NCBI GenBank assembly: GCA_965223325.1
Contig: CBDCWI010000002.1
Span: forward strand, 2,240,001 to 2,304,000
Direction: 5' to 3'
Source: Candidatus Multivoradales bacterium
GTDB lineage: Bacteria; Acidobacteriota; Thermoanaerobaculia; Multivoradales; Multivoraceae
DNA length: 64,000 nt
Shown here: piece by piece, positions 4,817-26,926 of the stretch
How the letters are laid out: each line of letters opens with the position of its first letter
Position numbering within the stretch: position 1 is the first letter of the stretch
Translations under genes and position numbers: made by a program
Notes under the pieces: model-generated
Seen by the model: only the letters and a program-made list of their open reading frames with translations
Told to the model about the DNA's origin: nothing
Databases searched by the model: none

Positions 4817-5056
4817 AGGGGGTACTCCTCCGGTTCCCATGGCTCTACTGCCGAGAGATCTTGACTGAGAGGTCACCTCTGAGGCGTTCTTCTGGGACGA
4901 ATGTGCCAAAGACGCGTTTCAGGCGGTGCTTCAAAGGGTGATTCACTCTTAAGACGTACGGGACGCGAAATCGTTTCGTTCGAGGGGCATTTCGTTTCCA
5001 GGGAGTTTCAGCCATAGGGGTCCAAAGACCCTCCAAGTAACTGAAACAAAAGGCGC

Positions 5057-6310: not shown

Positions 6311-6419
6311 GCTCTACATCTCGCAGTGAAGGAAGTTGTTGGGGGGTTTTGAACCCAGATACGACCGACTGGTCCAGAGGTTGCAGCCGAGCCCTGGCAT
6401 CCCACGAATCCAGGCCCGA

Positions 6420-7439
6420 CTAGCCCACCTGCCAGGTGTCGCCGCCCCGCAGCAGGTCCTCGAGTTTTCCCGGACCACGGTCTTCAGCCGCCTTGATCTG
6501 CGCCAGGACGCCTGATTCATAGCTCGGGCGCTCGACCTGGCGGAAAATCCCGATCGGGACTGGGTGGGTCGGTGCCTCGAACTGCGCCATCTGAAAGGCC
6601 AGGTTGGGATTCTCGCGGCTGGTATCCCAGATCAAGAGCTCCTCCGCGCTTCTGCCACCCTCACCCACCGCGGTGACCGCGAGATCTCCATCCGGACCGA
6701 GGTGGACGCCGCGGTCGCCTTCGGCTCCGACCACCACGGGCTTCTTGTCTTCGAGATAGATGACGTTCGCCTGACGGTTCTCCTTGTCGGTGACGTTGGC
6801 AAAAGCCTTGTCGTTGAAGATGTTGCAGTTCTGGAAGATCTCGACGAACGCGGTACCTTCATGGGCCGCTGCCGCTTTCAGCACCGACTTGAGGTGAGGC
6901 TGGAAGATGTCGACCGACCGTGCAACAAACGTCGCGCCCGCACCAATTGCCAGCGAGAGTGGGTTGAAGGGATAGTCGACCGACCCCATCGGGGTTGACT
7001 TGGTGCGTTTACCGGGCTCGCTGGTCGGCGAGTACTGACCCTTCGTCAGGCCGTAGATGCGGTTGTTGAACATCAGGATCTTGAGGCCAACGTTGCGCCG
7101 CAAGGCGTGAATGAAGTGGTTGCCGCCAATCGACATCGAATCGCCGTCGCCGGTGACCACCCATACCGAAAGCTCGGGCCGCGTCATCTTGAGGCCGGTG
7201 GCGACGGCAGGTGCACGCCCGTGGATGGTATGGAAGCCGTACGTGTTCATGTAGTACGGAAAGCGGCTCGAGCACCCGATCCCCGAGATCACGACGATGT
7301 TCTCCTTCGGAATGCCGAGCTCCGGGAACACCGACTGCACCGCCGAGAGAATGGCGTAGTCACCACACCCGGGGCACCAGCGCACCTCCTGGTCCGACTG
7401 GAAGTCCTTCTTGGTGAGGGCGGGGGCTTCAGTACTCAT
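6420..7439 (-). CDS. korB: 2-oxoacid:ferredoxin oxidoreductase subunit beta
   Basis: WCPGCGD, SGIGCSSR, HGRA, TPP-binding GDGD...NN..YGLTKGQ.SPT. Confidence 0.93.
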   Translation of the reverse strand: MSTEAPALTKKDFQSDQEVRWCPGCGDYAILSAVQSVFPELGIPKENIVVISGIGCSSRFPYYMNTYGFHTIHGRAPAVATGLKMTRPELSVWVVTGDGDSMSIGGNHFIHALRRNVGLKILMFNNRIYGLTKGQYSPTSEPGKRTKSTPMGSVDYPFNPLSLAIGAGATFVARSVDIFQPHLKSVLKAAAAHEGTAFVEIFQNCNIFNDKAFANVTDKENRQANVIYLEDKKPVVVGAEGDRGVHLGPDGDLAVTAVGEGGRSAEELLIWDTSRENPNLAFQMAQFEAPTHPVPIGIFRQVERPSYESGVLAQIKAAEDRGPGKLEDLLRGGDTWQVG

Positions 7440-7484
7440 TGCAGGTCTCCGTCGGCTGGCGGCAAAAGGTCTGACGACAAGACA

Positions 7485-9359: not shown

Positions 9360-9644
9360 GACTGGAACCCTTTCAACCTAGCAACGGATGGAGCGCCCTG
9401 GCAGGAACCGCGGGCCCTGGCGTACAAACGCCCTCGCCCCTGTCGGTCGAAGCGAGAGGCGCAAGCAACCACCCTCTGACTGAATCGTGGCTTCAGCCTA
9501 CGTCGCGACGCGATCTGAGGGAAGGGCCTTGACAGAAAAGGCGCAGGCCAGCCAAAAGCTCGAAAAACCCCACTCAGTCGAGCATCGACTCGCGCCGTTC
9601 CCCCCCTCAGGCCGACCGACCAGAAGAGATAGGCTGATAGCCCC

Positions 9645-11669
9645 ATGAAGCGTCGGCTCTCTCGTACGGCCTGGTTGATCCTCGCCGGAAGCACTGTCGC
9701 CGCCCTCTTGGCAACCGCAACGGGGGTCGATTCTCTCGCGAGCTTCGGCACGTTTCTCCTCGCTGTCATCGGTGGCAGCGCCGTCGTTCTGGGAACCGGC
9801 GCCGTCCTGCAGTGGATCCTCTGGCGAGTCGGCAGGCGGCTGGCGTTTTCCTACCTGCTGCTCGGCATGCTGCCGCTCTTGCTCATCGGGGTGATGCTGG
9901 CGGTGACTGGCTACCTGCTCTCGGGTTTCTACCTCGGGCACCTGTTTCGCGGCGCGCTCGACGGGATCGAAAACGAGCTCGCCGTCGCGACCCAGGTGGT
10001 CGCAGAGCACGGCGACTCCCTTGGCCGCGCAACCGATGACTCGAGCCTCGGTGCCGAGGCCCGCTTGCCGATGCGCTTCGTCGAATACCAAAACGGCGTG
10101 CGGAAAGGCGACGACCCCGGCGCGCCCGAGCTCTGGCCCAGCTGGCTCCTCGACCAGCGACCGTTCGAGACGTCGGTCTTGGATGAGAGCGGCAATCACC
10201 ACTTACCGGCTCTGGTCGCGCTTTCGGCCGACGACGACCCCGTTCTGGCGGCCGCTGCAAGCTCCGGGGACCGCCAGGTTCTCGGCCTGCTCGACGCAGA
10301 CCTCGAAGTCGTGTTGCGTAGTCGCTCGGGGGTCTGGACGGAGCTCTTTACCGACCCCAAGCAAAACACCCGGCTGACCCGTCTCGATCTCTTCGGCGAG
10401 ACCTTCTACGTTCTGCCACGTGAACGCAGCACCGGCACCGAAGAGCAGTGGCAGTTCCTCGAGAGCCAGGGTGGCAGTAAGCCGTGGCTCATCGGCTTCG
10501 AACTCACTGGTCCGATCCGCGATCTCAGAACCGGTGAGTCGCTCGGCGCCAATGTTTCCGCCAGCCTCACCGCCGACCGCGGGGTGATCTATCGCAGCCT
10601 CTTCTCGCGCGCGCCCGAGCTCGACGCCTTCGGCTGGGTCGCCTTCCTGTTGCCGGCGTTTCTCCTGTTCGACCTCTACCTCCTGGCGGCGCTGATGGCG
10701 ATCTACATGATCATCACCCTCAGTCGCGCCGTGAACCACCTCAGCACCGCGACCCAGTCCGTCCAGTCGGGCGACTTCGGCACTCGCATCCCGGTGACTC
10801 GAAAAGATCAGCTCGGTGCACTGCAGACCAGTTTCAACGACATGACCGCCAATCTCGAACACCTGGTTTCGGCAGCCGCCGAGAAGGAAGTGCTCGAGCG
10901 TGAGCTCGGCATCGCCCAGGACGTTCAAGAGAGCCTCCTACCCTCCCAGGTGACCGCGAGCGAACGCTACGCCCTGGCGGCCCATTTCGAGCCCAGCGCC
11001 GCTATTGCCGGCGACTACTGGGACATCGTCGAGCTGCCGGCAGAAGAAGAAGGGGATCTTCCACGACTGGCCCTGGTGGTCGCCGACGTCGCCGGTCACG
11101 GCATCGCAGCCGGCTTGCGCATGGCGATGCTCAAAGCCGGCATGCAGACCCTGGTCCAGGAGGGAAAGCCGCCCGAAGAGATCATGAGTGCCCTCGACGA
11201 TCTCGTGCGTTCGAGCGCCGGCCCGCGATCTTTCGTCACCGCGACACTGGCGCTCCTCGACTTCGACACCGCCACGCTCACTCTCACCAACGCCGGCCAC
11301 CCGCCGACCTACCTGATTAGAAGCGGCGAGCCGCGCGAGATCCTGCTGCCCGGCACGCCGCTCGGCGCCTTTGGCCACGACTTTGGTCAGGACAGTATTG
11401 ATGTTCTGCCCGACGACATCATCGTCATGCTTTCCGACGGCATCATCGAAGCGACGAACGGCGACGACGAGGCATTCGGCTATGAGCGCGTCCTCGAATC
11501 ACTGCGGGCCAGTGCACCACCGGACCAGAGCGAAAGCGGGAACAAAGCGCACAGAAAAGATGAGTTCGTCGAGATCGTGCGCGACGGTCTACTTGGCGCC
11601 GTCCACCGGCACACCGGCAACCGACCACCTGAGGACGACCGCACGCTGGTCGTCTTGCGCCTACGCTAG
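9645..11669 (+). CDS. Membrane PP2C/SpoIIE (RsbU-like) phosphatase with HAMP domain
   Basis: Several TM helices, HAMP (V..L...T..V..GDF..RI.V...DQLG.L...FN.M), PP2C motifs GDYWD, DVAGHG, NAGHPP, SDGIIE, DDRT. Confidence 0.88.
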   Translation: MKRRLSRTAWLILAGSTVAALLATATGVDSLASFGTFLLAVIGGSAVVLGTGAVLQWILWRVGRRLAFSYLLLGMLPLLLIGVMLAVTGYLLSGFYLGHLFRGALDGIENELAVATQVVAEHGDSLGRATDDSSLGAEARLPMRFVEYQNGVRKGDDPGAPELWPSWLLDQRPFETSVLDESGNHHLPALVALSADDDPVLAAAASSGDRQVLGLLDADLEVVLRSRSGVWTELFTDPKQNTRLTRLDLFGETFYVLPRERSTGTEEQWQFLESQGGSKPWLIGFELTGPIRDLRTGESLGANVSASLTADRGVIYRSLFSRAPELDAFGWVAFLLPAFLLFDLYLLAALMAIYMIITLSRAVNHLSTATQSVQSGDFGTRIPVTRKDQLGALQTSFNDMTANLEHLVSAAAEKEVLERELGIAQDVQESLLPSQVTASERYALAAHFEPSAAIAGDYWDIVELPAEEEGDLPRLALVVADVAGHGIAAGLRMAMLKAGMQTLVQEGKPPEEIMSALDDLVRSSAGPRSFVTATLALLDFDTATLTLTNAGHPPTYLIRSGEPREILLPGTPLGAFGHDFGQDSIDVLPDDIIVMLSDGIIEATNGDDEAFGYERVLESLRASAPPDQSESGNKAHRKDEFVEIVRDGLLGAVHRHTGNRPPEDDRTLVVLRLR

Positions 11670-12430
11670 CCCGAGGAAGCGGGTGCGCCCACCGCCGGCT
11701 CGAAACCGAGGTAGCCGAGAATACGCGCGACGTAACCTTGCGTCTCTCGGTACGGTGGGATGCCGTCGTAGCGATCGACTGCACCCTCGCCGGCGTTGTA
11801 CCCGGCCAACACCAGCGGCAAGTCGCCGTCGAAACGACCGATGAGCCACTTGACGTAGCTGGCGCCCGCCTCGAGGTTACGCGCCGGCTCGAAGAGTTCA
11901 CTCTGGTCGACACCGAAGCGCGCCGCCGTTGCCGGCATCAACTGCATCAGCCCGCGCGCCCCTTTAACCGACACGGCCTCCTTGTCCCAGGCTGACTCCG
12001 CGCGAGTCATCGCGGCAATCAGCTCCGGGTTGAGGCCATGGCGCTTCGCGGTCTCGTAGATCAACTCGCCGTAGGGAACCGGAGGTACCGGATGTTCGTC
12101 CCGGAAGGCGAGGTCGAGCGAAAAGCTGCCCTGGACCTGCTCCGGGGGTCGTACGATCTCGTCGTCGACGATTCGCTCGATGCGCCCCAGCGGTAGCGTC
12201 AGGCGACCGCCACCGCGCAGATCGAGGCGCATGCGCTCGCCGTCGAGCGCAAAGGAGTCGATGTGCAAGACGTCGCCGGTCACCAAAACGGCGATCTCGG
12301 CCGACAGCGGTGCCATCGCCAACACGACGAGGGCAACCATGGCCGACACAGCCAACATGAGAAACGAACCACGGGACCGGGTGGCCGGGCGTGATCTACG
12401 GTAGGAGTTGACGTTCAAGGCGCGAGTCAC
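11666..12430 (-). CDS. Lytic transglycosylase (SLT domain), exported; start may lie further downstream
   Basis: AES catalytic Glu, AVS.KGARGLMQLMPATA, AGYNAGEGAV, PPYRETQ.YV. Confidence 0.88.
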   Translation of the reverse strand: MTRALNVNSYRRSRPATRSRGSFLMLAVSAMVALVVLAMAPLSAEIAVLVTGDVLHIDSFALDGERMRLDLRGGGRLTLPLGRIERIVDDEIVRPPEQVQGSFSLDLAFRDEHPVPPVPYGELIYETAKRHGLNPELIAAMTRAESAWDKEAVSVKGARGLMQLMPATAARFGVDQSELFEPARNLEAGASYVKWLIGRFDGDLPLVLAGYNAGEGAVDRYDGIPPYRETQGYVARILGYLGFEPAVGAPASSG

Positions 12431-13475: not shown

Positions 13476-14405
<930 letters not shown>

Positions 14406-14474
14406 GCGCAATAAGGATAGTCCGCAGAGCGAAACCGTACTGCTCGTCGCACCTGAAGCGCTAGCCTCGGACCG

Positions 14475-16403
14475 ATGGGGATCGACGCCACACCCTCCGA
14501 CCAACCGAGGCGCCCTACGACCGAGGCCGTCTTCGTTGGCCTCGCTCTCGTGGGCATGGTGCTTGGCCTCCTCGGAGATCACCTCGGCTTGCCTTGGCTG
14601 CGCTGGGCAGGCTACGGCACCTCCTACATTCTTGGGGGGTGGTTCGGGCTGCGCGCCGGCCTCTCTTCGCTCTTCTCGTTGCACGTCGACATCGACCTGT
14701 TGATGATTCTCGCTGCGCTCGGGGCGCTCATCATCGGTGCTCCCTTCGAAGGTGCGATGCTGCTCTTTCTGTTCTCGCTCTCGAACGTGCTCCAGGATCT
14801 TGCGATCGGAAAGTCGCGCTCTGCGATCCAGGCGCTCTTGAAGCTGCGGCCGGAGACGGCGCGAGTCCAAGTCGGCGGTACCTGGCAGGACACCCCGATC
14901 GCCGGCATCGAGAAGGGGGCGGTGTTTCTGGTCACCCCGGGCGACCGTCTACCCCTCGACGGTGACATCAGGCGCGGAACCAGCAAGGTAGATCAGGCGT
15001 CCCTCACCGGGGAGTCGGCCCCGGTTGCAAAGGCCGTCGGGGATCCGGTGTTCGCCGGCACCATCAACCTCGACGGCGCTCTCGAGGTCGAGGTGACGAA
15101 ACGAGCCGACGAGTCGGCACTGGCGCGCATGATCGACCTGGTTGAAGAGGCCCAGGGCGAGAAGGCCGCGACCCAACGCCTGATCGACCGCTTCGAACAA
15201 CCGTATGCTCTGGGGGTCATCGCCATGACGGCCCTCGCAATCACCGTTCCTGTTCTGTTTTGGGGAGAGGCTTTCAACGTCGCGTTCTATCGCGCCATGA
15301 CCCTGATGGTCGCGGCCAGCCCCTGCGCCCTGGTGATTTCAACTCCCGCAGCGGTTTTGAGTGCGATCGCGGCGGCAGCGGCGAGTGGCGTGCTCTGGAA
15401 GGGCGGCGTGCACGTCGAAGAGGCGGCCACAATCCAAGCGATCGCCTTCGACAAGACGGGAACGCTGACCGCTGGCCGCTCACAGCTGCAAGGCCTGGAA
15501 GCTCTGGCGGGCGCTTCCGAGGACGAGGTTCTCGGGTTGGCGGCGGCGGTTCAAGCGCGCAGCGAGCATCACCTCGCGCACGCCACCCTGGAGGCGGCCA
15601 GCGAGCGCGGTCTCGAAGTCGCCACCGCCACCGCATTCCACGCCGAGGTCGGCCGCGGAGTGCGCGCCCGGGTCGACGGCGCGACGGTTCACGTGGGCAA
15701 CCCGCGCTACTTTGCTGATCTCGCGACAGAAGGACTCGAAAGAGCCCAGCGACGGGTCGATGAGCTTCAACAGTCAGGCAAGACAGCCATCATGGTGGCG
15801 CGTGAGGACGACGCTACGGCCAAGGCGCCTGTCCTGGTCATCGGGGTCATGGCCTTCGCCGACACCTTGCGTCCCGAAGCGCCGGCGGTGATCTCTCGCC
15901 TACGGGAGATCGGAATCCAACACATCGTAATGTTGACCGGCGACAACGCGGGCGTCGGAGAAGCGATCGGCAACCAGGCCGGGGTCGACGAGGTCAGAGC
16001 CGAACTGATGCCGCAAGACAAGGTCACCCTGGTTCGCGATCTCGAACAGCGCTACGGCGCCGTCGCCATGGTGGGCGACGGGGTCAACGACGCACCGGCC
16101 CTGGCGACTGCGACCCTTGGGATCGCCATGGGCGGTGCCGGCACCGACGTCGCGCTCGAGACCGCCGACGTGGTCCTCATGTCTGACGACCTCCGCAAGA
16201 TCCCCTATGCCCTCAGCCTGGGACGCCGAGCTCGCCGGACGTTGATCGCTAACCTCTTGATTTCACTGGGGATGATCGTGGTCATGGTGACCTCGATCGT
16301 GACCGTCGGGCTGGCGTTGCCGCTGGCGGTCGTTGGCCATGAGGGCAGCACCGTCCTGGTGTCGCTGAACGGTCTGAGGCTCCTGGCCGCCCGTGACCGG
16401 TAG
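14475..16403 (+). CDS. Heavy-metal translocating P1B-type ATPase, P1B-4-like (Co/Zn/Fe)
   Basis: TGES, SPC in TM6 (ASPCALVIS), DKTGT, GDGVNDAP, HEGST in the last TM. No N-terminal metal-binding domain. Confidence 0.92.
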   Translation: MGIDATPSDQPRRPTTEAVFVGLALVGMVLGLLGDHLGLPWLRWAGYGTSYILGGWFGLRAGLSSLFSLHVDIDLLMILAALGALIIGAPFEGAMLLFLFSLSNVLQDLAIGKSRSAIQALLKLRPETARVQVGGTWQDTPIAGIEKGAVFLVTPGDRLPLDGDIRRGTSKVDQASLTGESAPVAKAVGDPVFAGTINLDGALEVEVTKRADESALARMIDLVEEAQGEKAATQRLIDRFEQPYALGVIAMTALAITVPVLFWGEAFNVAFYRAMTLMVAASPCALVISTPAAVLSAIAAAAASGVLWKGGVHVEEAATIQAIAFDKTGTLTAGRSQLQGLEALAGASEDEVLGLAAAVQARSEHHLAHATLEAASERGLEVATATAFHAEVGRGVRARVDGATVHVGNPRYFADLATEGLERAQRRVDELQQSGKTAIMVAREDDATAKAPVLVIGVMAFADTLRPEAPAVISRLREIGIQHIVMLTGDNAGVGEAIGNQAGVDEVRAELMPQDKVTLVRDLEQRYGAVAMVGDGVNDAPALATATLGIAMGGAGTDVALETADVVLMSDDLRKIPYALSLGRRARRTLIANLLISLGMIVVMVTSIVTVGLALPLAVVGHEGSTVLVSLNGLRLLAARDR

Positions 16404-16521
16404 GAGCCCGTGGTGCAACACAGCATATCCACATGTCTATTCGCGACCGCAACCGGGCGTGCGCTAGAGTCAGGGGTCCTCGCAGAGCCCTTTTTATGGA
16501 ATTGATTCCTGAGGTCCGTTG

Positions 16522-17304
16522 ATGCAACTCGCCCTGGTGAGCGCCAAGGGAGGCGTCGGAAAAACAACGACCGCCGTGAACCTGGCCGCCGCTCTCGCAG
16601 CCAAGGGTCGCCGATCTCTCGTCATCGATCTCGACCCACAGGGGTCGGCCTCGCTTCACCTGGGTGTCAAGCGCTCCGACTTCGCACCTTCGATCGCTGA
16701 TGTGCTGCTTGCTCGCCGCGAGATTCGCGATGTCATCCGTTCGACTGGCAACGAGATGCTCGACATCGCCACTTCCTCGGTCGACCTGCTCGACGCCGCC
16801 GAAGACGGCAAGAACTGGCGCCAACCCGACCGTCGCCTGTCGGTGGCCATCGAGGGTATTCGGTCGCTCTACGACTACATCATGATCGACTGCCCGTCGG
16901 GGTTCAACGCCCTGAGCCGCAACGCCATCGTCGCCGCGAGCCACTTCTTGATTCCGACCCCGCCGCAGTACCTGTGTTGGGAGGGCGTGCGAAACGTCAT
17001 CCAGCGCTGTCACCGCGTGGCGCACCGCTCCGGCCACCGCAACGAGCTGCTCGGGGTGCTCTTGTCGATGGTCGACGGCCGCGCTGGCTACCTGCGTGAC
17101 AACGCCGCCAACCTACGCCAGATTTTCGGCCAGGACCTGCTCGACAGCGAGGTGCGTACCAACGTCAAGCTCACCCAGGCAGCCGAGCTCGGGCGCCCTG
17201 TTCTAGCCACCGCTCCGTGGTCGACCGGCTCGCTCGCCTTCCGGGCGCTGGCCGAGGAAGTCGTTCTCCGCCAGGAAATGACCGAGGCCTACCCCGCCGC
17301 CTAG
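16522..17304 (+). CDS. ParA/Soj family ATPase (orphan, no parB adjacent)
   Basis: Deviant Walker A KGGVGKTT, IDLDPQGS, YDYIMIDCP, EVR.NVKL..A...G.P. Confidence 0.9.
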   Translation: MQLALVSAKGGVGKTTTAVNLAAALAAKGRRSLVIDLDPQGSASLHLGVKRSDFAPSIADVLLARREIRDVIRSTGNEMLDIATSSVDLLDAAEDGKNWRQPDRRLSVAIEGIRSLYDYIMIDCPSGFNALSRNAIVAASHFLIPTPPQYLCWEGVRNVIQRCHRVAHRSGHRNELLGVLLSMVDGRAGYLRDNAANLRQIFGQDLLDSEVRTNVKLTQAAELGRPVLATAPWSTGSLAFRALAEEVVLRQEMTEAYPAA

Positions 17305-17343
17305 CGGAGCCAGAGAGTGCCTGCCACGACTCGAGTCGAGTTC

Positions 17344-17368
17344 GGAGCCTCGAGAGGCCTTTTTGTTT
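17344..17368 (+). terminator. Possible intrinsic terminator after the parA-like gene
   Basis: GCCT-CGAG-AGGC hairpin followed by CTTTTTGTTT. The stem is short. Confidence 0.4.
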
Positions 17369-17600
17369 CGAATGAAGAAGGGTTGGCAGACGTACACCTG
17401 AGCCTATGGACGAGGCGCCGGAAACAGCGGTGAAACGAGGGCCTCATGCTATCGTCAGTTTCTATTATTTCTGCACCCTTCCACCCGTTTCGGCCTGCAG
17501 GTTCACCTCCATGCGACGCCGTTGTCGCCCTGCCGCATTCCACAACCTGGTCGAAGAAGAGCCGGCTGCGAGCCTGGCTGAACTCGAGGAGTAGTCGCTG

Positions 17601-18365
17601 ATGTTTCGTCGCTTGGGCAATCTAGTGAGGGGTTTCCTCGGTCTGTTCATTTCCGGTATCGAAAAGGCCAACCCGCGAGCGCTGATCGAGGCCGAGAAAG
17701 AGAATCTCCGTAAACAAATCGCCCGCTTCAACGACAGTCTGGCCCAGCACGCCGGCTTCGTCGAAAGCCTGATGCGCCAGATCAAGGCGCAGGAGAAAGC
17801 CGAGGCCGACCTCGCCGCCAAGACGGCCGCGCACTTGAAGCTCGGTCACCAGAAGGTCGCGGGTCAGTACGCCCTACGACTCAAGGACATCAAGGCGCAG
17901 CTCGAGGAGAACCGCAAACAGCTCGAGATGGCCGAACAGACCTACGAGAAGCTGATCAAGTCGCGCGACGTTTCGGTGCGCGACGCACAAGAGAAGATCG
18001 AGTCGCTCCGTCGCATGATCTCCGAGACCGAGATGCTCGAGGCGCAGGCCGAACTGCAGGAAATGGCGACCGGCATGATCACCTCGATCGGCGGTTCGGG
18101 CGACACCCTCAAGCGCGTCGAGGAATACCTGCACGAACGGCGCGACAAGGCTGCCGGGCGCGCCCGCGTCGCCTCCGATTCGGTCGACACCTCTGAGATC
18201 GACCTCATGGAGGCCGAGCAGGAGGCCCTGGGCGACCAGGCACTCGCCGAGTTCGCCGCCGCCTACGGCCTCGACGTGCCGGCACCCGAGGCCGCTGCAC
18301 CAGCGGAAGAGACATCGGCCGCCCCGGTGCGCGACATGGGCCCGACAGAAACAGAATCCAACTAA
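17601..18365 (+). CDS. PspA/IM30 (Vipp1, ESCRT-III superfamily) protein
   Basis: N-terminal amphipathic helix MFRRLGNLVRGFLGLFISGIE, then the NP kink, a long coiled-coil hairpin (LIEAEKENLRKQI...A..HLK.G....A..YA), TLKRVEE...ER...A.GRARVA and an acidic/Pro C-terminal extension. Confidence 0.85.
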   Translation: MFRRLGNLVRGFLGLFISGIEKANPRALIEAEKENLRKQIARFNDSLAQHAGFVESLMRQIKAQEKAEADLAAKTAAHLKLGHQKVAGQYALRLKDIKAQLEENRKQLEMAEQTYEKLIKSRDVSVRDAQEKIESLRRMISETEMLEAQAELQEMATGMITSIGGSGDTLKRVEEYLHERRDKAAGRARVASDSVDTSEIDLMEAEQEALGDQALAEFAAAYGLDVPAPEAAAPAEETSAAPVRDMGPTETESN

Positions 18366-18444
18366 GGATCGGCATTCCGGCCGACCATTCGGCTCGCTAC
18401 GAGTCAGCCTTAGATAGAACGCCAGAAAAACAGAGGACCCAGAC

Positions 18445-20166
18445 ATGTCGGACAACGTAGGACCTACCGTACTGGGGAAGATCGTCATCTTCCTCTTCGT
18501 TCTCGCGCTCCTCGCGGGCGCCGGCTACTTCTTCCGCGAGCAGATCTTCCCCTCAGGCCAGGAAACCGGCGACGTCGACCTCGACGAGTTCCGCGACCAG
18601 GCGGGGACCGTCGAAGCGCCCGACACGGCCGGCATCACGACGGTCAACGAGTACAGCTACGTGCCGTCTGAGAAGCTGCCGCCGGTCTCAGGCGTTTCCA
18701 ACTACAAGTGGGACGCCAACGAGAAGGTCGTCGAGTTTCCGATCAACGTGTGGATCGGCTGGCTCCCGATTGTCGCGGCCAATCACGGTTTCGCCGCCAA
18801 CGAAGACTCGATCTTCTACCGCGACTATGGCTTCAAGGTGAACCTTCGCCTGATCGACGACCCCGTCGTAGCACGCGACGCCTTCGCCGCCGGTGAGAGT
18901 CATGTGCTTTGGGGCACCCTCGACATGATGGTGCTGTTCGCGCCCGAGCTCATGAAGGACTCGCGCACCGCACCGCGCATCTTCCAGCAGATCGATTGGT
19001 CCAACGGCGGCGACGGCATCATCGTGCGCGGCGGCATCGACTCGGTCAAGGACCTCAGGGGCAAGACCGTGGTCTACGCCCAGAACAGCCCATCGCAGTA
19101 CTTCTTGAACAACCTGCTGCTCAACGCCGGCATCCAGCCGAGCGATGTCAAGCACCGCTACACCGGCGACGCCTTCCAGGCCGCGGCCGCCTTCGTTTCA
19201 GACAAGAGCATCGACGCCTGTGTGACCTGGGCTCCCGACATCTACAACATCCCCGATCGTGTCAAGGGAACGAAGATCCTCACGACAACCGTCGAGGCCA
19301 ACAAGCTCATCGCCGACGTCTGGGCGGCGCGTGCCGACTTCGCCAAGGACCACCCGGAGATCATTCAGGGTCTGGTCGACGGCATCTTCAAGGGCATGGA
19401 CCAACTCAAGTCGGACACCTTCAAGTCACAGGCCTTCGCCTGGATGGCCGACGGCTACGGCTTCGCGGTCGACGAGGTCGCTGCGATGGAGGCCGACGCC
19501 CACTCGACCAACTTCGCCGAGAACAAGAACTTCTTCCTCAACCAGAACAACCCCGCCAACTTCGAGCGTACCTGGAAGAACATCACCTTCGTCTACCGCG
19601 AGCTCGGTCTGCTTGGCACGCCCGTGCGTTTCGACGAGGTCATGGATTTCTCGGTGATCCAGAAGACCGACGCTTCGGGGATCTTCAAGAACCAGCGAGA
19701 CGAGTACCGCACCACCTTCGCGCCCACCTCGTACTCGCGGATCAACGCCGAAACCCCGATCCTCACCCAGACGATCCGGATCAACTTCTATCCCAACTCG
19801 GCGAACCTCTACGAACCCAGGCGCGACGAGCTCGGCAACCTGATTCAGGACTCACTCTACGATCCGAACGTCAACAGCACGATCGAGAAGGTCGGGCGGC
19901 TCGCCGGCCAGTATGAGCGCGCAGTGATCGCCGTGGTTGGGCACACCGATGCGTCAATGAAGGGGCGCGGAACGCCTGAAGAGGCTGTTCAGCGCCTATC
20001 GCTCGACCGCGCTCAGGCAGTGCGCGACGCGTTGATCAAGGAGTACAGCTTCGAGCCCGGCAAGTTCGTCGTTGAAGGCATGGGCTGGGACCAGCCCGTC
20101 TCTGGGGACAACCACGCCCTCAATCGCCGAGTTGAGATCTCGGTCTACCCACCCGAAGGTGGCTAG
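18445..20166 (+). CDS. Membrane-anchored ABC solute-binding protein (NMT1/SsuA-like PBP fold) fused to an OmpA-like peptidoglycan-binding domain
   Basis: N-terminal TM helix. SBP motifs INVWIGWLP, DWSNGGDGI, KDLRGK.V, DACVTWAP, IADV. C-terminal VVGHTD...LS..RA.AV...L...GMG.DQP...NRRVEI. Confidence 0.85.
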   Translation: MSDNVGPTVLGKIVIFLFVLALLAGAGYFFREQIFPSGQETGDVDLDEFRDQAGTVEAPDTAGITTVNEYSYVPSEKLPPVSGVSNYKWDANEKVVEFPINVWIGWLPIVAANHGFAANEDSIFYRDYGFKVNLRLIDDPVVARDAFAAGESHVLWGTLDMMVLFAPELMKDSRTAPRIFQQIDWSNGGDGIIVRGGIDSVKDLRGKTVVYAQNSPSQYFLNNLLLNAGIQPSDVKHRYTGDAFQAAAAFVSDKSIDACVTWAPDIYNIPDRVKGTKILTTTVEANKLIADVWAARADFAKDHPEIIQGLVDGIFKGMDQLKSDTFKSQAFAWMADGYGFAVDEVAAMEADAHSTNFAENKNFFLNQNNPANFERTWKNITFVYRELGLLGTPVRFDEVMDFSVIQKTDASGIFKNQRDEYRTTFAPTSYSRINAETPILTQTIRINFYPNSANLYEPRRDELGNLIQDSLYDPNVNSTIEKVGRLAGQYERAVIAVVGHTDASMKGRGTPEEAVQRLSLDRAQAVRDALIKEYSFEPGKFVVEGMGWDQPVSGDNHALNRRVEISVYPPEGG

Positions 20167-20195
20167 GCCATAGCCGACACGCCAGGAACCAAGAG

Positions 20196-21182
20196 TTGAC
20201 CACAGAGCAAGACCCACTCGCGTCGGAGGCTAAAGCTGCACGCGACGGAATCGGGGCGCACCTCGGCGACCCCGATGTGGTCGAAGCCGAAGCAGCTGAA
20301 CTCGCCGCCGAGGCCCCAGAAACATCTGGCGACGACGCCAACGACGGAGAAGAAACTGCCGGCACATCGGAAGGTCACGGCTTCCTGGTCGTTCGCGAGC
20401 ACATCCCGATGTGGATGTATTGGGTCCTCGGGATCATTCCGATCCTCCTCCTGTTTCTCGGCTGGTGGCTGCTGACTGGCAGCGGACCGGCCGAAGAGCG
20501 CATCATCTCTCCCACCATCCTGCCCAGCCCGCTAGAGGTCGCGCAGTCGTTCAAGCAGCTGTGGTTCGAGCGTGCGCTGACCCGCAATACCTTGATCTCC
20601 TTGCGGCGCGTCGCGCTCGGCTTCGCCGTCGGTACGGCGATCGCCTTTCCGCTCGGTCTCTTCATGGGTTCGTTCACCAAGATCAGGGCGCTCTTCAACC
20701 CGCTTGCCACCCTCGGTGCCTATCTGCCGATCCCAGCGCTCGTTCCGCTCACTCTTTCTCTCCTGGGAACAGGAGAGCGGCAGAAGGTCGGTTTTCTGGC
20801 GCTCGCCTTCCTGATCTACTTGTTGCCACTGATCGTCGCGGCGGTCGACAAGGTCGACGACGTGTTCGTCAAAACGGCACTCACCCTCGGCGCTAGCAAG
20901 TGGCAAGTAGTGAGCAGGGTGTTGTTCGGCGTTTCGTGGGCCGACATCTACCAGTCACTGCGCCTGGGCTTCGGTATCGGCTGGAGCTACATTCTGCTGG
21001 CCGAGATGGTCGACATTGGCCAGGGTCTGGGCGGCATCATCATGACCTCGCAACGCCGTGGACCCCGTGAGCACATCTACCTGGTGTTGCTGGTGATCAT
21101 CGCCATCGCCTTCGTCACCGATCGCATCTGGGCCGCTATCGGTGAGTACCTGTTCCCCTATCGCCGGCGGAGAAAAGCGTGA
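20196..21182 (+). CDS. ABC transporter permease, NitT/TauT family
   Basis: ILPSPLEV...SL.RV.LGF...PLGL.MG, P.PALVPL....G.GE..K, EAA-like A.TLGAS..Q, LR...GIGW.Y..LAEM...GLG. Confidence 0.9.
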   Translation: MTTEQDPLASEAKAARDGIGAHLGDPDVVEAEAAELAAEAPETSGDDANDGEETAGTSEGHGFLVVREHIPMWMYWVLGIIPILLLFLGWWLLTGSGPAEERIISPTILPSPLEVAQSFKQLWFERALTRNTLISLRRVALGFAVGTAIAFPLGLFMGSFTKIRALFNPLATLGAYLPIPALVPLTLSLLGTGERQKVGFLALAFLIYLLPLIVAAVDKVDDVFVKTALTLGASKWQVVSRVLFGVSWADIYQSLRLGFGIGWSYILLAEMVDIGQGLGGIIMTSQRRGPREHIYLVLLVIIAIAFVTDRIWAAIGEYLFPYRRRRKA

Positions 21183-22057
21183 GCCTCACCAGCAACGAAG
21201 GTAGCGCCCCGACCAGCGCACAGTCTACCGAGGTTTCCGAACCGCCGGTCGTCGAGTTCAGGGGTGTCGAGAAGACCTTCAACCCCGGGACCAGAAAGGC
21301 CTTCACCGCCATCAAGAACGTCGACTTCACAGTCGAAGATCGGCCCGGTGAGGGTGAGTTCATCGCCCTCGTGGGCCCCTCGGGGTGCGGCAAGTCGACC
21401 ATTCTCAATCTGATTCAGGGCTTCGACGACGTCTACCCGCCAACCAAGGGCGAGGTGCTGGTGCGCGGCAAGAAGGTCTTAGGGCCCGGCCGCGACCGCG
21501 GCATGATCTTTCAGCGCTACAGCTCCTTCCCCCATCTCACCGTGCTGCAGAACGTTACCTTTGGTCTCGAGATCGCACCCGAGAGCGACCTTTCGAAGAC
21601 GGCCATGCGCAACATGGCCCGCGAGTGGATTCGAAAGGTCGGCCTCGAAGGGCACGAGAGCAAGTATCCGCACCAACTCTCGGGCGGGCAGCAGCAGCGA
21701 GTTGCCATCGCGCGTAGCCTGGTAGTCAAGCCACGCATCATCTTGATGGACGAACCCTTCTCGGCACTCGATGAACCAACTCGCTACGACATGCAACAAC
21801 TCGTCACCCACCTCTGGCACGAGATCGAGGCGACGGTCTTCCTCGTCACCCACTCCTTGTCTGAGGCGGTCTACCTGGGCGATAGAGTGTGGATCATGTC
21901 GCGCCACCCCGGCACCATCGCCTATCGCTTCCGCGACATTATTCCCCCTCGCATCGACCGCGACCCCGTCGAGGTTCAAACCTCCGACGACTTCAAGTCG
22001 GCGGTGCGAGAGGTCGCCTCTGTCTTCCGCGAGATCGAAGCCGGGCGCACTCCCTAA
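21179..22057 (+). CDS. ABC transporter ATP-binding protein, NitT/TauT family
   Basis: GPSGCGKST, MIFQ.Y, LSGGQQQRVAIAR, LMDEPFSALD, VTHS. GTGA overlap with the permease stop. Confidence 0.93.
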   Translation: MSLTSNEGSAPTSAQSTEVSEPPVVEFRGVEKTFNPGTRKAFTAIKNVDFTVEDRPGEGEFIALVGPSGCGKSTILNLIQGFDDVYPPTKGEVLVRGKKVLGPGRDRGMIFQRYSSFPHLTVLQNVTFGLEIAPESDLSKTAMRNMAREWIRKVGLEGHESKYPHQLSGGQQQRVAIARSLVVKPRIILMDEPFSALDEPTRYDMQQLVTHLWHEIEATVFLVTHSLSEAVYLGDRVWIMSRHPGTIAYRFRDIIPPRIDRDPVEVQTSDDFKSAVREVASVFREIEAGRTP

Positions 22058-22070
22058 GGTCCAAAGCCAG

Positions 22071-22961
22071 ATGTCTGCTCCACCCATCGGTTTCTTTGGC
22101 TACGTCAAAGAAGCATTCTTCTGGCGCACCCCGACACCAGGGCTCGGTCATCTGCCGCTCAACCTCGGCGCCCTGGCGGTCTTTGGAGTGCTCGGCATCG
22201 CCAATCCGGGGTTCTGGCTGCTCGGTGGCGCCCTCGAACTCGCCTACCTGACCGGCATGGCGTCCAGTAGGCGCTTCCAGCGCGTCGTCCAGGGGCGCCG
22301 CTCCCTGGCACGCCAACGCCAGGAGGAGACCAAGCTCGGCGCCGCGATCACCCGCCTCACACTCGAGAGCCAGCGCCGCTACCACTCGCTCCTCGCCCAG
22401 TGCCGCGACATCGCCGGCATCTCGGCAACCCTCGACGACGGTGCGGGCATGACTTCGCTGCGCAAGCTACGCACTGGCGGCCTGAACCAGATGCTGTGGA
22501 TTTATCTACGGCTTCTGACCTCGCGCGAGGTCCTCGTGCAAACCCTCGAGCACACCGACCGCGAGTCGGTCGAGCGTGAGATCCAGGGCCTCACCGAACG
22601 CCTCGACGCGACCGATCCAGAAACCACGCTCGCTCGTTCGCTTACCGCATCGCTAGACATACAGCAGAAGCGGTTGGCCAACCTCGACCGGTCGACCGAA
22701 AGTCTCCACGTCCTCGAAGCCGAGCTCGTCCGCATCGAGTCGCAGGTCGCTTTGATTCGCGAAGAAATGGCAGTCTCCGGCAAGGCCGAAGCGCTTTCAG
22801 GTCGCGTCGACAGTGTCGCTGAGGCACTGGACGAGACCAACCGCTGGATGGAACAGAACGCCGACATCTTCTCGGGCCTGGAAGGCCTCGAAGAACCGCG
22901 TCTGGAGGACCTGCCGTCGACGACGCCACCGGTTCCACGCTACGAGGGCGAACGTTCATGA
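22071..22961 (+). CDS. 2-TM membrane protein with long cytoplasmic coiled-coil, unknown function
   Basis: ATG lies 13 nt after the ABC ATPase stop. Hydrophobic hairpin LNLGALAVFGVLGIANPGFWLLGGALELAYL, heptad-rich C-terminal region, ATGA overlap with the AAA gene. Confidence 0.75.
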   Translation: MSAPPIGFFGYVKEAFFWRTPTPGLGHLPLNLGALAVFGVLGIANPGFWLLGGALELAYLTGMASSRRFQRVVQGRRSLARQRQEETKLGAAITRLTLESQRRYHSLLAQCRDIAGISATLDDGAGMTSLRKLRTGGLNQMLWIYLRLLTSREVLVQTLEHTDRESVEREIQGLTERLDATDPETTLARSLTASLDIQQKRLANLDRSTESLHVLEAELVRIESQVALIREEMAVSGKAEALSGRVDSVAEALDETNRWMEQNADIFSGLEGLEEPRLEDLPSTTPPVPRYEGERS

Positions 22962-24787
22962 TGGAGAAGGGCGAGAAGTCGTCTCTGGAGCTTCCTGGGT
23001 GGGCCGAAGAGATGCGACGCCTCTTCCGCTCTGGGACCTGCTCACAGTTCGTTCTCTATGGCTCGGTGCACGATCTGGTGGCGCTCGAGACCAGAGGCGG
23101 GAAAGCCGGCCAACGACAGTACGTCGCTCTGCGGACCTTCCTCACCGAGCGCATGTTTCAGCCTTTCGACGTGGTCATTCACTACGATCGCGGTCGCGGC
23201 ATTCGAGTCAAGAAGGGAGCTGGCCACTTCCATCGGTTCCTGGAGGCGTTCGACGCTTTTCAAGGCACCAATTGGGCGAAACTCCCCAGCGAAGCGGTCG
23301 GCGAATCACTCAACCTGGCCAATACCTTGCCGCGCGACCCGCCGCGGGCACTCGAGCTCCTCAACCGTTTCCTGCGTGGCAGCCAGTCCCTGACCGACGC
23401 CGACGAAGACGGCGCTCGACACCCGGCGCCGTTGTCGGTCGCCCTGGTGATCGACCATGCCGAGTACATCGCACCGCGGGCCGATGCGCTCCAGATGTCC
23501 TCGGAACACAGCCAGGCCCTCATTCAGCTGCTCGACTGGGCCAGTGACCCGGACCTCACCAAAGCCGTGGTGTCGACGGTTCTGATCACTGACACGCTCG
23601 GCGACCTGACGCAGGACCTGGTCGAGAACCCCTACAACTCCAAGCTCGAGGTCGAGCTTCCGAACACCGAAGAGATCGAGCGCTACGTCGAAGACCTGGT
23701 TGCCGACGAACCCGAATTCGAGCGCCTCTCTGAACTCGCCCCGCCAGCGCTGGCGGCCAAGCTCCTCGGCCTCACCAGGGTCAACGTGCGCAGTTTGATC
23801 CTGCGTGCCCTGCGCAACGACGAGCCGCTCGACTCGAAGTACCTCTCCGAACTGCGCAAGGAGCTGATCGAAAAGCAGGCCTCGGGACTGATCGAGTTCA
23901 TCGAGTCGAAGCGCACCTTGGACGACGTCGCCGGTCACGTCGAAGCCAAGGCCTGGCTTCGGCAAGACGCCGAGCTCTTGCGTCGCGGTCGCATTCGGGC
24001 CCTCCCGATGGGCTACCTGCTTGCCGGCCGCATCGGCACAGGAAAGACCTACCTGGTCACCTGCCTGGCAGGCGAAGTCGGTGTCCCGGTCGTCGAGCTC
24101 AAGAACTTTCGCGACAAGTGGGTAGGCGCTACCGAAGGCAACCTGGAGAAGATCTTCGCGATCCTGGAAGCCCTCGGTCAAGTGATCGTCTTCGTCGACG
24201 AGGCCGACCAGGCGACTGGGAAACGCAGCGGTGGCGGCGGGGGCGACGGCGGGCTCTCCGGGCGCATCTACGGCATGCTCGCCAAGAAGATGAGTGACAC
24301 CGCCAACCGCGGCAAGATCGTCTGGATCTTCGCCACCAGCCGGCCAGATCTTCTCGAGGTCGACCTCAAGCGGCAGGGCCGCCTCGACGTCCACATCCCG
24401 CTCTTTCCACCGCAGGATCCCGAGAGTCGCCAGGAGCTGTTTGCCGCGATGGCACGAAAGGTCGGAGTGGACTTCGGCGGTGAGCTACCCGAACTGCCCG
24501 ACAACCCTCAGATCGGCGGCAACGAAATGGAAGGCATCCTGGTGCGGACGCTGCGGCTCTGGGAGACTCGAACAGACGACGAGAAGCGCACCCTTTCCGA
24601 GATCGCCAGCGAAGTGATCGCCGAGTTCCGGCCGTCGGCACACGTCGAGCGGTTGAAGATGATGGATCTCCTAGCGGTCAAGGAGTGCACCGACGACCGC
24701 TTCCTGCCGCCGCGCTTCCGCGAAATGGATCTCGGCGAGGTCAATCGCCGCATCCAGGAGCTCAAGTTCTCGATCGGAGAGGACTAG
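22958..24787 (+). CDS. AAA+ ATPase, classic clade (degenerate N-terminal AAA-like domain plus intact C-terminal AAA domain)
   Basis: Walker A GRIGTGKT, pore loop KWVG.TE, Walker B IVFVDEAD, SRH ATSRPDLLE.DLKRQGRLD. The N-half has a vestigial VALVIDHAE. Confidence 0.88.
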   Translation: MMEKGEKSSLELPGWAEEMRRLFRSGTCSQFVLYGSVHDLVALETRGGKAGQRQYVALRTFLTERMFQPFDVVIHYDRGRGIRVKKGAGHFHRFLEAFDAFQGTNWAKLPSEAVGESLNLANTLPRDPPRALELLNRFLRGSQSLTDADEDGARHPAPLSVALVIDHAEYIAPRADALQMSSEHSQALIQLLDWASDPDLTKAVVSTVLITDTLGDLTQDLVENPYNSKLEVELPNTEEIERYVEDLVADEPEFERLSELAPPALAAKLLGLTRVNVRSLILRALRNDEPLDSKYLSELRKELIEKQASGLIEFIESKRTLDDVAGHVEAKAWLRQDAELLRRGRIRALPMGYLLAGRIGTGKTYLVTCLAGEVGVPVVELKNFRDKWVGATEGNLEKIFAILEALGQVIVFVDEADQATGKRSGGGGGDGGLSGRIYGMLAKKMSDTANRGKIVWIFATSRPDLLEVDLKRQGRLDVHIPLFPPQDPESRQELFAAMARKVGVDFGGELPELPDNPQIGGNEMEGILVRTLRLWETRTDDEKRTLSEIASEVIAEFRPSAHVERLKMMDLLAVKECTDDRFLPPRFREMDLGEVNRRIQELKFSIGED

Positions 24788-24900
24788 CAGCCTCCCAGAC
24801 CCCGGGACCGATCCGGTAGGCTTCCCTGTCGAATTTGTCCACGTCTTAGAGGAATGGCACGCGAGACTGCCTGCCAGCCTCATGTGTTTCAGGAGAAGTC

Positions 24901-26643
24901 ATGCTCACCAAGACGACCCGCTTCGGGTCCTTTGGCCTTCTTGCCGTCGCCGCTGTCGCCGCATCCACCTGGCTCGTAGCCGGTTGCACGCCAGATGAAA
25001 GTGAAAGCCCCCTGGCCACGACCGACACAGAGTCGGCCGGCACCCTCGACACCACCCTGCCGGCTGCAATCGGCGACGCCGAGGCTCTTGTCACCGCCGA
25101 GCTTCTACGAACACATGTCGCCGCCCTCGCCGACGACGCAATGGCGGGCCGTGCGCCGGGGACCGAAGGCGACCGGATGGCGCAGCACTATCTGATTCGG
25201 GAGATGCAGGGCATCGGCCTCGAACCGGCAGGGCCAGGAGGAGAATGGCTGCAACCGTTCGACATCGTCGGCATCACGGCAGAGGTTCCGAAGACCTGGA
25301 GTTTCGCCACCAAGAATGGCGAAATGACCATGGTCAGGAACGACGAGTTCGTCGTCTTCAGCGGCTCGCAGAGCGACCGCGCCGCGATCGAGAACGCCGA
25401 GCTGGTGTTCGTGGGCTACGGGATCGAAGCGCCAGAGTACGGCTGGGACGATTTCGGCGATGCCGACCTCTCCGGCAAGGTGTTGGTGATGATGAACAAC
25501 GACCCCGACTGGGATGACGATCTCTTCGCCGGTGACCGCCGCCTGTTCTACGGCCGCTGGGTCTACAAGTACGAAAGCGCCGCCCGCCAGGGCGCCGTGG
25601 GCGCCATCGTCATCCACACCACGCCTTCAGCCGGCTACCCGTGGCAGGTCGTCACCAGCTCCTGGACCGGCGAACAGGTCGAACTGCCAGCCGGCCAGGA
25701 GCCGCGCCTCGCCATCGGCGCCTGGACGACCGAAGACGCGACCCGTCGCCTCTTCAAGCAGGCCGGTTTCGACCTCGACACCCTGCGCGAAGAGGCGCGA
25801 AGCGCTGACTTTTCCCCAGTCCCCCTGGGAATTACCACCTCTCTGGCGATCGAGAATTCGATCAACCGCACCGAAACCGCCAACGTCCTTGGTTTGCTGC
25901 CCGCTAGCGACGCCGATCTGAGTGACCAATACGTCGTCTACAGCGCGCACTACGACCATCTCGGAAACTCCGGCGAAGGCTCCGATTCGATCTACAACGG
26001 TGCCCTCGACAACGCTGCCGGGACCTCCACCGTTCTCGCCATCGCCCGGGCCATGGCGGCTCTCCCCGAGCGCCCGCGCCGCTCCACCATCTTCGCCTTC
26101 GTCGGCGCCGAAGAGTCGGGCCTCCTGGGCTCGAGGTTCTATGCCGAGAACCCCACCGTGCCGCCCGGCAGAATGGTCGCTAATCTCAACTTCGACGGCG
26201 GCAACATCTGGGGCCGCACCGAAGACGTCACCTTCATCGGTTACGGAAAGTCCTCTCTAGATGCCGTCGTCGAAGCCTTTGCCGCTCAACAGGGCCGCAC
26301 CGTGCAAGGCGACCAGTTCCCCGACCGCGGCTTCTTCTACCGCTCCGACCAGTTCAATTTCGCCAAGATCGGCGTCCCCGCCATCTACCTCGACACCGGC
26401 ACCCGCTTCCGCGATCGCGACGAGAACTGGGGCCGAGAGCAAATCGAGGCCTGGGAGGCCCAGCACTACCACCAGCCCAGCGACGAACTCGTCGACTCCT
26501 GGAACTGGGAGGGCATGGTCGAAGACACCGTCCTCGGCCTACGCGCCGGAGTCTGGATCGCCAACCAGGAGAGCCAACCAACCTGGAACCCAGGCGACGA
26601 GTTCGAAGCCGCCAGACAAGAAGCCCTGGCCGCCATTCAGTAG
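24901..26643 (+). CDS. M28 family metallopeptidase with PA domain, lipoprotein
   Basis: Lipobox LVAGC, GR.PGT.G, SAHYDH, GALDNAAG, AEESGLLGS, RSDQ, YHQPSD. Confidence 0.92.
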   Translation: MLTKTTRFGSFGLLAVAAVAASTWLVAGCTPDESESPLATTDTESAGTLDTTLPAAIGDAEALVTAELLRTHVAALADDAMAGRAPGTEGDRMAQHYLIREMQGIGLEPAGPGGEWLQPFDIVGITAEVPKTWSFATKNGEMTMVRNDEFVVFSGSQSDRAAIENAELVFVGYGIEAPEYGWDDFGDADLSGKVLVMMNNDPDWDDDLFAGDRRLFYGRWVYKYESAARQGAVGAIVIHTTPSAGYPWQVVTSSWTGEQVELPAGQEPRLAIGAWTTEDATRRLFKQAGFDLDTLREEARSADFSPVPLGITTSLAIENSINRTETANVLGLLPASDADLSDQYVVYSAHYDHLGNSGEGSDSIYNGALDNAAGTSTVLAIARAMAALPERPRRSTIFAFVGAEESGLLGSRFYAENPTVPPGRMVANLNFDGGNIWGRTEDVTFIGYGKSSLDAVVEAFAAQQGRTVQGDQFPDRGFFYRSDQFNFAKIGVPAIYLDTGTRFRDRDENWGREQIEAWEAQHYHQPSDELVDSWNWEGMVEDTVLGLRAGVWIANQESQPTWNPGDEFEAARQEALAAIQ

Positions 26644-26926
26644 GCGCACCGCAAGGTCAGCCCACCGGCTACTCGAGAGGCGAAGAGTAGTAGCGCGAGA
26701 AGTGTGAACGCACGAGGCCGCACTCGAGCAAGAAAGTCTCGGAGATCGAGCGCGTCCTCGAGGAGTTTTCAGAACCCGCGGAGCTTCATCGCGGTGCCGC
26801 TCCAAGCTGGCCACGAGCGGTACAACCACTCCTCGAGCTCTCCGGAACGAATCATCTCCGTGGGGTCTTTGACCGCCAGCGCAGCCAAGACGCTCCTCGC
26901 ACTCTTTGAAGCGGTTTCGGGTAGAG

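Follow-up and report, generated by a model that had tools for sequence, protein, structure and literature searches.

How bacteria take apart the polymers of PspA and Vipp1 is an open question, and a six-gene unit in the genome of a Candidatus Multivoradales bacterium offers a directly testable candidate for the answer. The window examined here comprises 64,000 nucleotides of contig CBDCWI010000002.1 (positions 2,240,001 to 2,304,000); at 17601–24787 of this window, a PspA gene opens and the gene of a tandem AAA+ protein closes a run of six co-oriented genes. A reading made from the letters of this DNA alone (the sequence-only reading) had proposed a self-contained envelope-remodelling machine, in which the AAA+ protein disassembles the PspA polymer. 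According to the part of a 2025 review at hand (PMC7619361), a Vps4-like ATPase "appears absent in bacteria". The reading preferred here is that of a bacterial envelope cassette of PspA and a tandem AAA+ protein, with remodelling of the PspA polymer by the ATPase as its mechanism, and we regard it as evenly poised between right and wrong.

The unit starts with a 254-amino-acid PspA/IM30 protein of the ESCRT-III superfamily (17601–18365; Pfam and profile matches) that belongs to a divergent subfamily. It is followed by a 573-amino-acid fusion (18445–20166; Pfam) of a transmembrane (TM) anchor, an NMT1/SsuA/TauA-type solute-binding domain and a C-terminal OmpA-like peptidoglycan-binding domain, by an ABC importer permease of the TauC/SsuC/NtrB type (20196–21182, 328 amino acids), and by an ABC transporter ATPase of the TauB/SaoA/NtrCD type (21179–22057, 292 amino acids, GTG start). 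The last two genes encode a two-helix-hairpin membrane protein of 296 amino acids, here called TMcc (22071–22961; AlphaFold2 (AF2) model and orthologue alignment), and a tandem (type II) AAA+ protein of 609 amino acids (22958–24787; Pfam, AF2 and Foldseek). All six lie on the plus strand, and the junctions are, in order, 79 bp, 29 bp, a 4-bp overlap at 21179, 13 bp and a 4-bp overlap at 22958, the permease stop and ABC ATPase start sharing GTGA and the TMcc stop and AAA+ start sharing ATGA. The longest mechanical open reading frame (ORF) for TMcc begins at 21771 and runs into the ABC ATPase gene; because orthologue starts agree at the methionine of 22071, the start was set there. The TTG start of the permease is uncertain, since orthologue alignments first match at its residues 5–63. 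The gene layout of the sequence-only reading, with its gaps and overlaps, was thereby recovered in full, and Pfam bore out its gene identities (PspA_IM30, the NMT1/OmpA fusion, BPD_transp_1, ABC_tran and AAA), the product of gene 5 matching no family.

Conservation of this arrangement was first sought among relatives, in a set of 41 genomes from which 12 loci of carriers of an AAA+ orthologue were fetched. Nine of the 12, which are all nine with complete flanks, contain the six genes in the window's order; of the remaining three, L014 and L024 are cut by a contig end and L021 is a bare PspA–AAA pair. Because nine loci keep both genes and order, the six-gene arrangement goes beyond chance. The ParA-like and M28 peptidase genes that flank the window's copy were found in none of the 12 loci, and the six genes, coupled in translation or closely spaced, are inherited as one unit, independent of their flanks. 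The sequence-only reading had staked its case on a neighbourhood conserved across genomes, and it is vindicated on this point.

A full-length AAA+ orthologue is present in 13 of the 41 genomes, at 56–100% identity in 11 (own genome included) and at 37–38% in two. Its distribution is patchy: 3 of 25 genomes of the host's own family carry it, against 10 of 16 genomes of the order outside that family, and the second genome of the host's genus lacks it. Pfam matches to PspA were obtained in 16 of the 41 genomes; neither protein was found in 24, and four have a canonical, high-scoring PspA alone. Among these relatives, this PspA subfamily and the ATPase co-occur nearly one to one (12 of the 13 AAA+-bearing genomes), and the sole AAA+ genome lacking a PspA match is 84% complete, with a contig that ends within the operon.

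For a wider set, a pattern from the AAA alignment was used to scan one genome per species, whereby at least 600 stretches were matched; 596 of them passed confirmation, from which the 80 best were taken. These 80 loci are therefore the best-scoring ones and not a random sample, and 49 of them have complete context. To count the partners of the AAA gene, profiles built from close orthologues were searched against six-frame ORFs in its vicinity and on its strand. The loci belong to Acidobacteriota (among them Thermoanaerobaculia, Holophagales and Vicinamibacterales), Eisenbacteria, Riflebacteria, Planctomycetota, Gemmatimonadota, Omnitrophota and Bacteroidota (Balneolaceae and Rhodothermales). 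PspA was found beside the AAA gene in 64 of the 80 loci (42 of the 49 with complete context) and TMcc in 66 (again 42 of 49); the OmpA/binding protein followed with 44 (27 of 49), and the permease and ABC ATPase with 34 and 35, respectively (22 of 49 each). All six genes were present in 20 of the 49 complete-context loci. PspA, TMcc and the AAA+ protein form the core of the cassette. The OmpA-tethered binding protein often joins them as a fourth component, and the ABC permease and ATPase make up an accessory module. To call the six-gene unit a self-contained machine, as the sequence-only reading did, is an overstatement, because the ABC genes fall outside the invariant core.

Gene order varies across the wider loci. 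Besides the window's order, the arrangements permease–ABC ATPase–TMcc–AAA–PspA–binding protein and TMcc–AAA–PspA–binding protein–permease–ABC ATPase were seen, as were reduced forms, namely TMcc–AAA–PspA–OmpA protein without ABC genes and PspA–AAA alone. Minimal dyads of this last kind, with neither TMcc nor transporter, are L041, L043, L078 and L079, with G027 as one from the related genomes. Of the 65 loci that have both TMcc and the AAA gene, 45 place TMcc directly 5' of the latter and 18 show an overlap of the two, making this the tightest gene pair of the cassette. Extra DNA separates the pair in L019 (G036), by ~1.3 kb, and in L034, by ~6.3 kb; both may be insertions.

The AAA+ protein consists of two stacked AAA units, D1 (residues ~14–310), a degenerate AAA fold, and D2 (~320–609), an intact domain of the classical clade on which Pfam AAA (PF00004) was placed at residues 354–481. 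The AF2 model of D1 (residues 1–318) has a predicted local distance difference test score (pLDDT) of 89.6, and its top Foldseek matches are p97 ND1 (D1, 5.8e-9) and proteasome Rpt subunits, among at least 500 matches at E ≤ 0.001. Despite this AAA-like fold, D1 has no P-loop and no catalytic Glu, and for this reason it is considered dead. D2 is matched best by the D2 of Cdc48/VAT (6e-34) and contains GRIGTGKT, KWVG, DEAD and RQGRLD, which we take to be Walker A, pore loop 1, Walker B and the second region of homology with its arginine fingers, respectively. These motifs are invariant or nearly so in 33 orthologues, with W388, G390, D414, E415, R472 and R475 invariant in all 33 sequences. Intact Walker motifs, an aromatic pore loop and arginine fingers are as expected of a substrate-threading unfoldase, and the protein is probably an unfoldase-type motor, as had been suggested.

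For the AAA+ protein, NCBIfam scores in bits were 71.1 for CDC48 (TIGR01243; cut-off 802.65), 68 for FtsH, 54 for PAN and 39.9 for CdvC (cut-off 650); since all are far below cut-off, the AAA+ protein constitutes a family of its own in the classical clade and is not a Vps4. The notion of a Vps4-like ATPase fails in family terms, for this is a tandem protein with a dead D1, without the MIT domain and with scores nearer to Cdc48 and FtsH than to CdvC. Relatives in a large protein collection bear generic names only.

The identity of its presumed client, by comparison, is as had been read. Window PspA scored 38.9 bits against Pfam PF04012 (PspA_IM30; cut-off 33.9), with residues 2–220 aligned to profile positions 3–216 of 220, and is the sole PspA_IM30 match above cut-off in its genome. 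A profile of 33 operon PspAs matched Vipp1 over its full length (7o3w, 1.8e-10, positions 1–215 on chain residues 2–212), and further matches were obtained to Vipp1 6zvr (5.7e-9) and E. coli PspA 4whe (0.0068). In these 33 sequences the N-terminus (MFRRLGNLVRGF...) and the C-terminal helix are conserved, and the proteins end in K-[DE]-M-G-P, with G247 invariant. Five canonical PspA paralogues, matched from eight fetched stretches (L105–L109; G025, G013, G007, G040 and G030) and encoded away from an AAA-linked cassette, end in ...L-K-x-x-M-G-[IL]; the C-terminal end does not, therefore, single out the AAA-linked PspAs. To our knowledge, the LKxxMG-type motif is a general feature of PspA C-termini that has been little discussed.

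TMcc is predicted by AF2 (mean pLDDT 80.2) to comprise an N-terminal amphipathic helix, a hydrophobic hairpin at ~30–65 (helices 30–44 and 46–65) and then ~230 amino acids of cytoplasmic sequence folded into six long helices. The turn of the hairpin, N45, P46, G47 and F48, is invariant in the orthologue alignment. Its profile matched 2266 cluster representatives out of 1.84 billion at E ≤ 0.001 and 1474 at E ≤ 1e-10, and nearly all family members among the matches listed are of ~270–300 amino acids. TMcc is thus a member of a large family without a Pfam model: Pfam gave no family for TMcc itself and no recurring one for 31 members at E ≤ 1 (maximum 4 of 31), and Snf7, PspA_IM30 and Rv2743c were absent among the 25 of 86 families listed.

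Relationship of TMcc to the ESCRT-III superfamily was sought by several routes. The Snf7 model PF03357 left TMcc unmatched in a search of its own genome, in which the control was insensitive (0 control genomes passed the cut-off). The TMcc profile matched no ESCRT-III chain of the PDB at E ≤ 10, the full model had no Foldseek match at E ≤ 0.001, and a wide VIA-align search returned generic helical bundles only, with no ESCRT-III chain among the matches listed. Direct comparison with PspA by hhalign gave probabilities of 0.15% and 4%, the latter for an alignment of the helix-turn-helix at 165–213 of TMcc with the PspA hairpin tip at 62–116. A Snf7 assignment for TMcc could not be reproduced with these searches, in which the full-length protein was compared. 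A protein-atlas search placed Rv2743c as the named cluster nearest to TMcc, with a score of 0.88 that is below the search's own 0.9 mark and serves as a lead only; the Pfam model of Rv2743c (PF25587) did not match TMcc in the own-genome search either, and TMcc was not retained as a homologue of PspM (Rv2743c).

In the binding protein, Pfam placed NMT1, Phosphonate-bd and NMT1_2 on residues 102–333 and OmpA on 478–559, and a hydrophobic stretch near residues 10–30 provides the TM anchor. Its NCBIfam matches (SsuA_fam, urea-SBP and OmpA-type) were all below cut-offs, as were those of the permease (SaoP, TauC and ntrB) and of the ABC ATPase (TauB and SaoA, ~190 bits), the last of which has a Pfam ABC_tran match of 2.7e-30. 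Judged by these matches, the ABC parts belong with importers of the taurine/sulfonate/nitrate (NitT/TauT) type, though below every equivalog cut-off. At L057 (11465–13201) and similar loci without ABC genes, the OmpA domain is kept and the solute-binding domain is no longer recognised by Pfam; the wall-tethered protein of such loci may be a sensor or anchor and not an importer subunit. In the Riflebacteria-type loci L039, L040, L045, L046 and L080, a second gene for a binding protein–OmpA fusion lies right 5' of PspA, in addition to the downstream one.

How these parts might work together can be proposed as follows. By analogy with other PspA/Vipp1 proteins, PspA would polymerise on the stressed inner membrane. 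TMcc, embedded in the membrane, would bring the ATPase to this site or activate it, as suggested by the tight and often overlapping TMcc–AAA gene pair; nucleation of PspA may be a further role of TMcc. The ATPase would assemble as a hexamer of two tiers, in which the D1 ring is inactive and serves a structural purpose. PspA (or TMcc) would be threaded by the aromatic pore loops of the active D2 ring, whereby the polymer would be disassembled or recycled; in this the ATPase would be a functional counterpart of Vps4 that arose in a Cdc48-like lineage. The anchored, peptidoglycan-bound binding protein, together with the NitT/TauT-type importer where present, could tie remodelling to solute uptake or to a signal from the wall or from a periplasmic solute. 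A broader statement, that a complete ESCRT-III-like machine exists in many phyla in which PspA is nucleated and anchored by TMcc, recycled by a dedicated two-tier AAA+ unfoldase of Cdc48-like descent with an origin separate from that of Vps4, and the whole gated by a peptidoglycan-tethered periplasmic sensor or importer, is offered tentatively, and we lean somewhat against it. The three-gene core is small enough for reconstitution in vitro, and the cassette is present in cultured organisms, in a looser version for example in Gracilimonas and Fodinibius strains.

Other explanations of the locus have to be set against remodelling of PspA by the ATPase. That an ordinary solute ABC importer merely lies beside unrelated stress genes, with no coupling between them, is scarcely credible: the transporter genes do encode ordinary NitT/TauT-type parts (permease, ATPase and binding domain), but PspA, TMcc and the AAA gene remain linked without ABC genes (27 of the 49 complete-context loci lack them) and through permuted gene orders across several phyla. 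The binding protein also carries an unusual TM anchor and OmpA domain, and the OmpA protein accompanies PspA and the AAA gene even in loci devoid of the permease and ATPase, such as L057. By the partner counts and gene orders of the wider loci, coincidental adjacency is effectively excluded. PspA might instead be the regulator, holding the tandem AAA+ protein inactive until membrane stress, with the ATPase extracting or unfolding other membrane proteins (TMcc, the anchored binding protein or damaged transporters, for example) much as Cdc48, Msp1 or FtsH do. In E. coli, PspA binds the AAA+ domain of PspF, and inhibition of PspF by PspA is established, as summarised in the available part of the review cited above (PMC7619361). 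The kinship of D2 with Cdc48/VAT D2, the higher NCBIfam scores for CDC48 and FtsH (71 and 68 bits) than for CdvC (40 bits), and a gene pairing in which TMcc and not PspA is tightest with the ATPase all agree with such a role. However, the cassette has no conserved protease or further effector downstream, the M28 gene being in no related locus, and in the PspA–AAA dyads PspA is the sole obvious client; we consider this explanation unlikely. A third proposal would refine the remodelling model by making TMcc a membrane-anchored ESCRT-III/Snf7-like subunit, so that PspA and TMcc form a copolymer served by one AAA+ protein. The long paired helices of the AF2 model (128–180 and 186–236, followed by shorter ones) are compatible with an ESCRT-III hairpin, and the sole hhalign alignment falls on the PspA hairpin tip; yet the Pfam, PF03357, PDB profile, Foldseek and hhalign searches gave no support, and the proposal is doubtful.

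Several observations weigh against remodelling of PspA by the ATPase itself. None of the five partners was detected beside the AAA gene in 7 of the 80 loci (4 with complete context), mainly from Rhodothermales, and PspA went undetected near the AAA gene in 7 of the 49 complete-context loci, although divergent partners may have been missed. Loci of the Balneolaceae type (L085 at 4615–10698 and others) run PspA, a 154-amino-acid ORF without a Pfam family, TMcc, enoyl-CoA hydratase, a CNNM/CorC transporter with CBS domains and AAA+, so that two unrelated genes and 2.1–2.9 kb come between TMcc and the AAA gene. The AAA+ protein has no MIT domain or other known ESCRT-III-binding module, and the K-[DE]-M-G-P end of PspA was rejected as an AAA-recruitment motif on account of the similar LKxxMG ends of the five canonical paralogues. 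A consensus scan of 16400–26800 detected no sigma-70 promoter-like site, and one for terminators around the cassette found none clear at its bounds; co-transcription of the unit is suggested by its gene spacing. Two runs of complex prediction that paired PspA and the full AAA+ protein, made without controls, each returned no answer (score 0.00) and are evidence neither way.

That this layout might already be catalogued computationally had been foreseen, and it is. In the portions of the paper available, Ravi et al. (2024, mSystems, PMC11237479) describe in silico operons of PspA with an inactive plus a classical AAA domain, a TM protein, an ABC ATPase, a permease and a PBPB–OmpA protein, and from comparative genomics they propose ATP-dependent membrane remodelling comparable to Snf7/Vps4. 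As far as those portions go, the window shares with them PspA, the N-terminally inactive two-AAA protein, the ABC ATPase, the permease and the binding/OmpA protein, and nothing differs in kind; the locus is a further instance of their operon type, and the interpretation is plausible and not new. Added here are the split into core and accessory parts, the TMcc–AAA coupling, the co-occurrence in 12 of 13 genomes and the size of the TMcc family, with which their Table S3 and Text S2.2 may overlap. Our literature search found genome surveys, reviews and PspA structure papers only, and no functional or experimental study of this AAA+ protein or cassette.

Compared with archaeal and eukaryotic ESCRT-III and Vps4 (CdvB/CdvC), the cassette is alike in that the gene of a polymer-forming ESCRT-III-superfamily protein adjoins that of an AAA+ protein of the classical clade whose pore loop is aromatic, and in that it encodes a membrane-binding partner, loosely comparable to CdvA. 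It differs in its ATPase, which has two AAA tiers (D1 dead) in place of an MIT-bearing protein and scores lower on CdvC than on Cdc48 or FtsH, in a polymer subunit of the PspA and not the Snf7 type, and in an OmpA-tethered periplasmic protein and ABC importer that are without an ESCRT counterpart. A ProX binding protein is reported in some archaeal ESCRT loci in the accessible part of Makarova et al. (2024, PMC10936438). Cdc48/p97/VAT likewise has two stacked AAA folds, and provides the best sequence match to D2 and the best fold match (p97 D1) to D1; the cassette protein differs in a D1 that has lost Walker A and Walker B, and in having no N-terminal double-psi-barrel substrate/cofactor domain, for which there is no room since the AAA-like fold starts at about residue 14.

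The enterobacterial Psp system (pspF–pspABC) also pairs PspA with an AAA+ protein and small membrane partners, but PspF is an NtrC-type sigma-54 activator inhibited by PspA, whereas the AAA+ protein of the cassette is a Cdc48-like tandem without a DNA-binding domain. The remark that no pspF, pspB or pspC lies nearby holds within the searches made: the sole match to PspC (PF04024) in the genome lies outside this contig, on the other one, a genome-wide search for PspB (PF06667) found none (genome 98.2% complete), and no sigma-54 activator domain was detected in the 13 flanking ORFs scanned (~7.5–34 kb, only ORFs of at least 200 amino acids). With mycobacterial PspA–PspM (Rv2743c) the cassette shares a two-TM membrane protein encoded with PspA, an analogy at most; Ravi et al. 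(PMC11237479) report, in the sections available, no PspM homologues outside Actinobacteria. Membership of an anti-phage defence system was considered and rejected. PADLOC returned no match for PspA, the binding protein fusion, the permease or TMcc, and only generic ABC (mad3) and generic AAA (IetA, 35.9 bits) matches for the other two of the six proteins.

The host genome is of 6.69 Mb in two contigs. By Pfam, the cassette is flanked upstream by a ParA/MinD-like ATPase and a P-type ATPase and downstream by an M28 peptidase. The 296-bp intergenic region 5' of pspA (17305–17600, plus strand) has a weak stem followed by a T-run at ~17344–17370, right behind the ParA-like gene, and a GAGGAG ribosome-binding site ~8 nt ahead of the ATG; the promoter of the cassette likely lies in this region. 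The M28 peptidase, which also has a PA domain (24901–26643, plus strand), begins 113 bp 3' of the AAA+ gene with no evident terminator in between, and is probably outside the system because none of the 12 related loci carries it.

A tyrosine recombinase ORF (Phage_integrase with a SAM-like N-terminal domain; 13476–14870, minus strand) is situated ~2.7 kb before the cassette, overlapping the P-type ATPase ORF where the latter starts. Taken with the patchy distribution of the cassette, it could mark a mobile region, although no island-like anomaly was seen in base composition, GC being 0.61–0.64 within the cassette and 0.62–0.66 in its flanks. Two further neighbours, neither conserved with the cassette, are envelope-related: a membrane signalling protein with HAMP and SpoIIE (PP2C-type phosphatase) domains at 9645–11669 on the plus strand and, following it on the opposite strand, an SLT lytic transglycosylase at 11666–12430.

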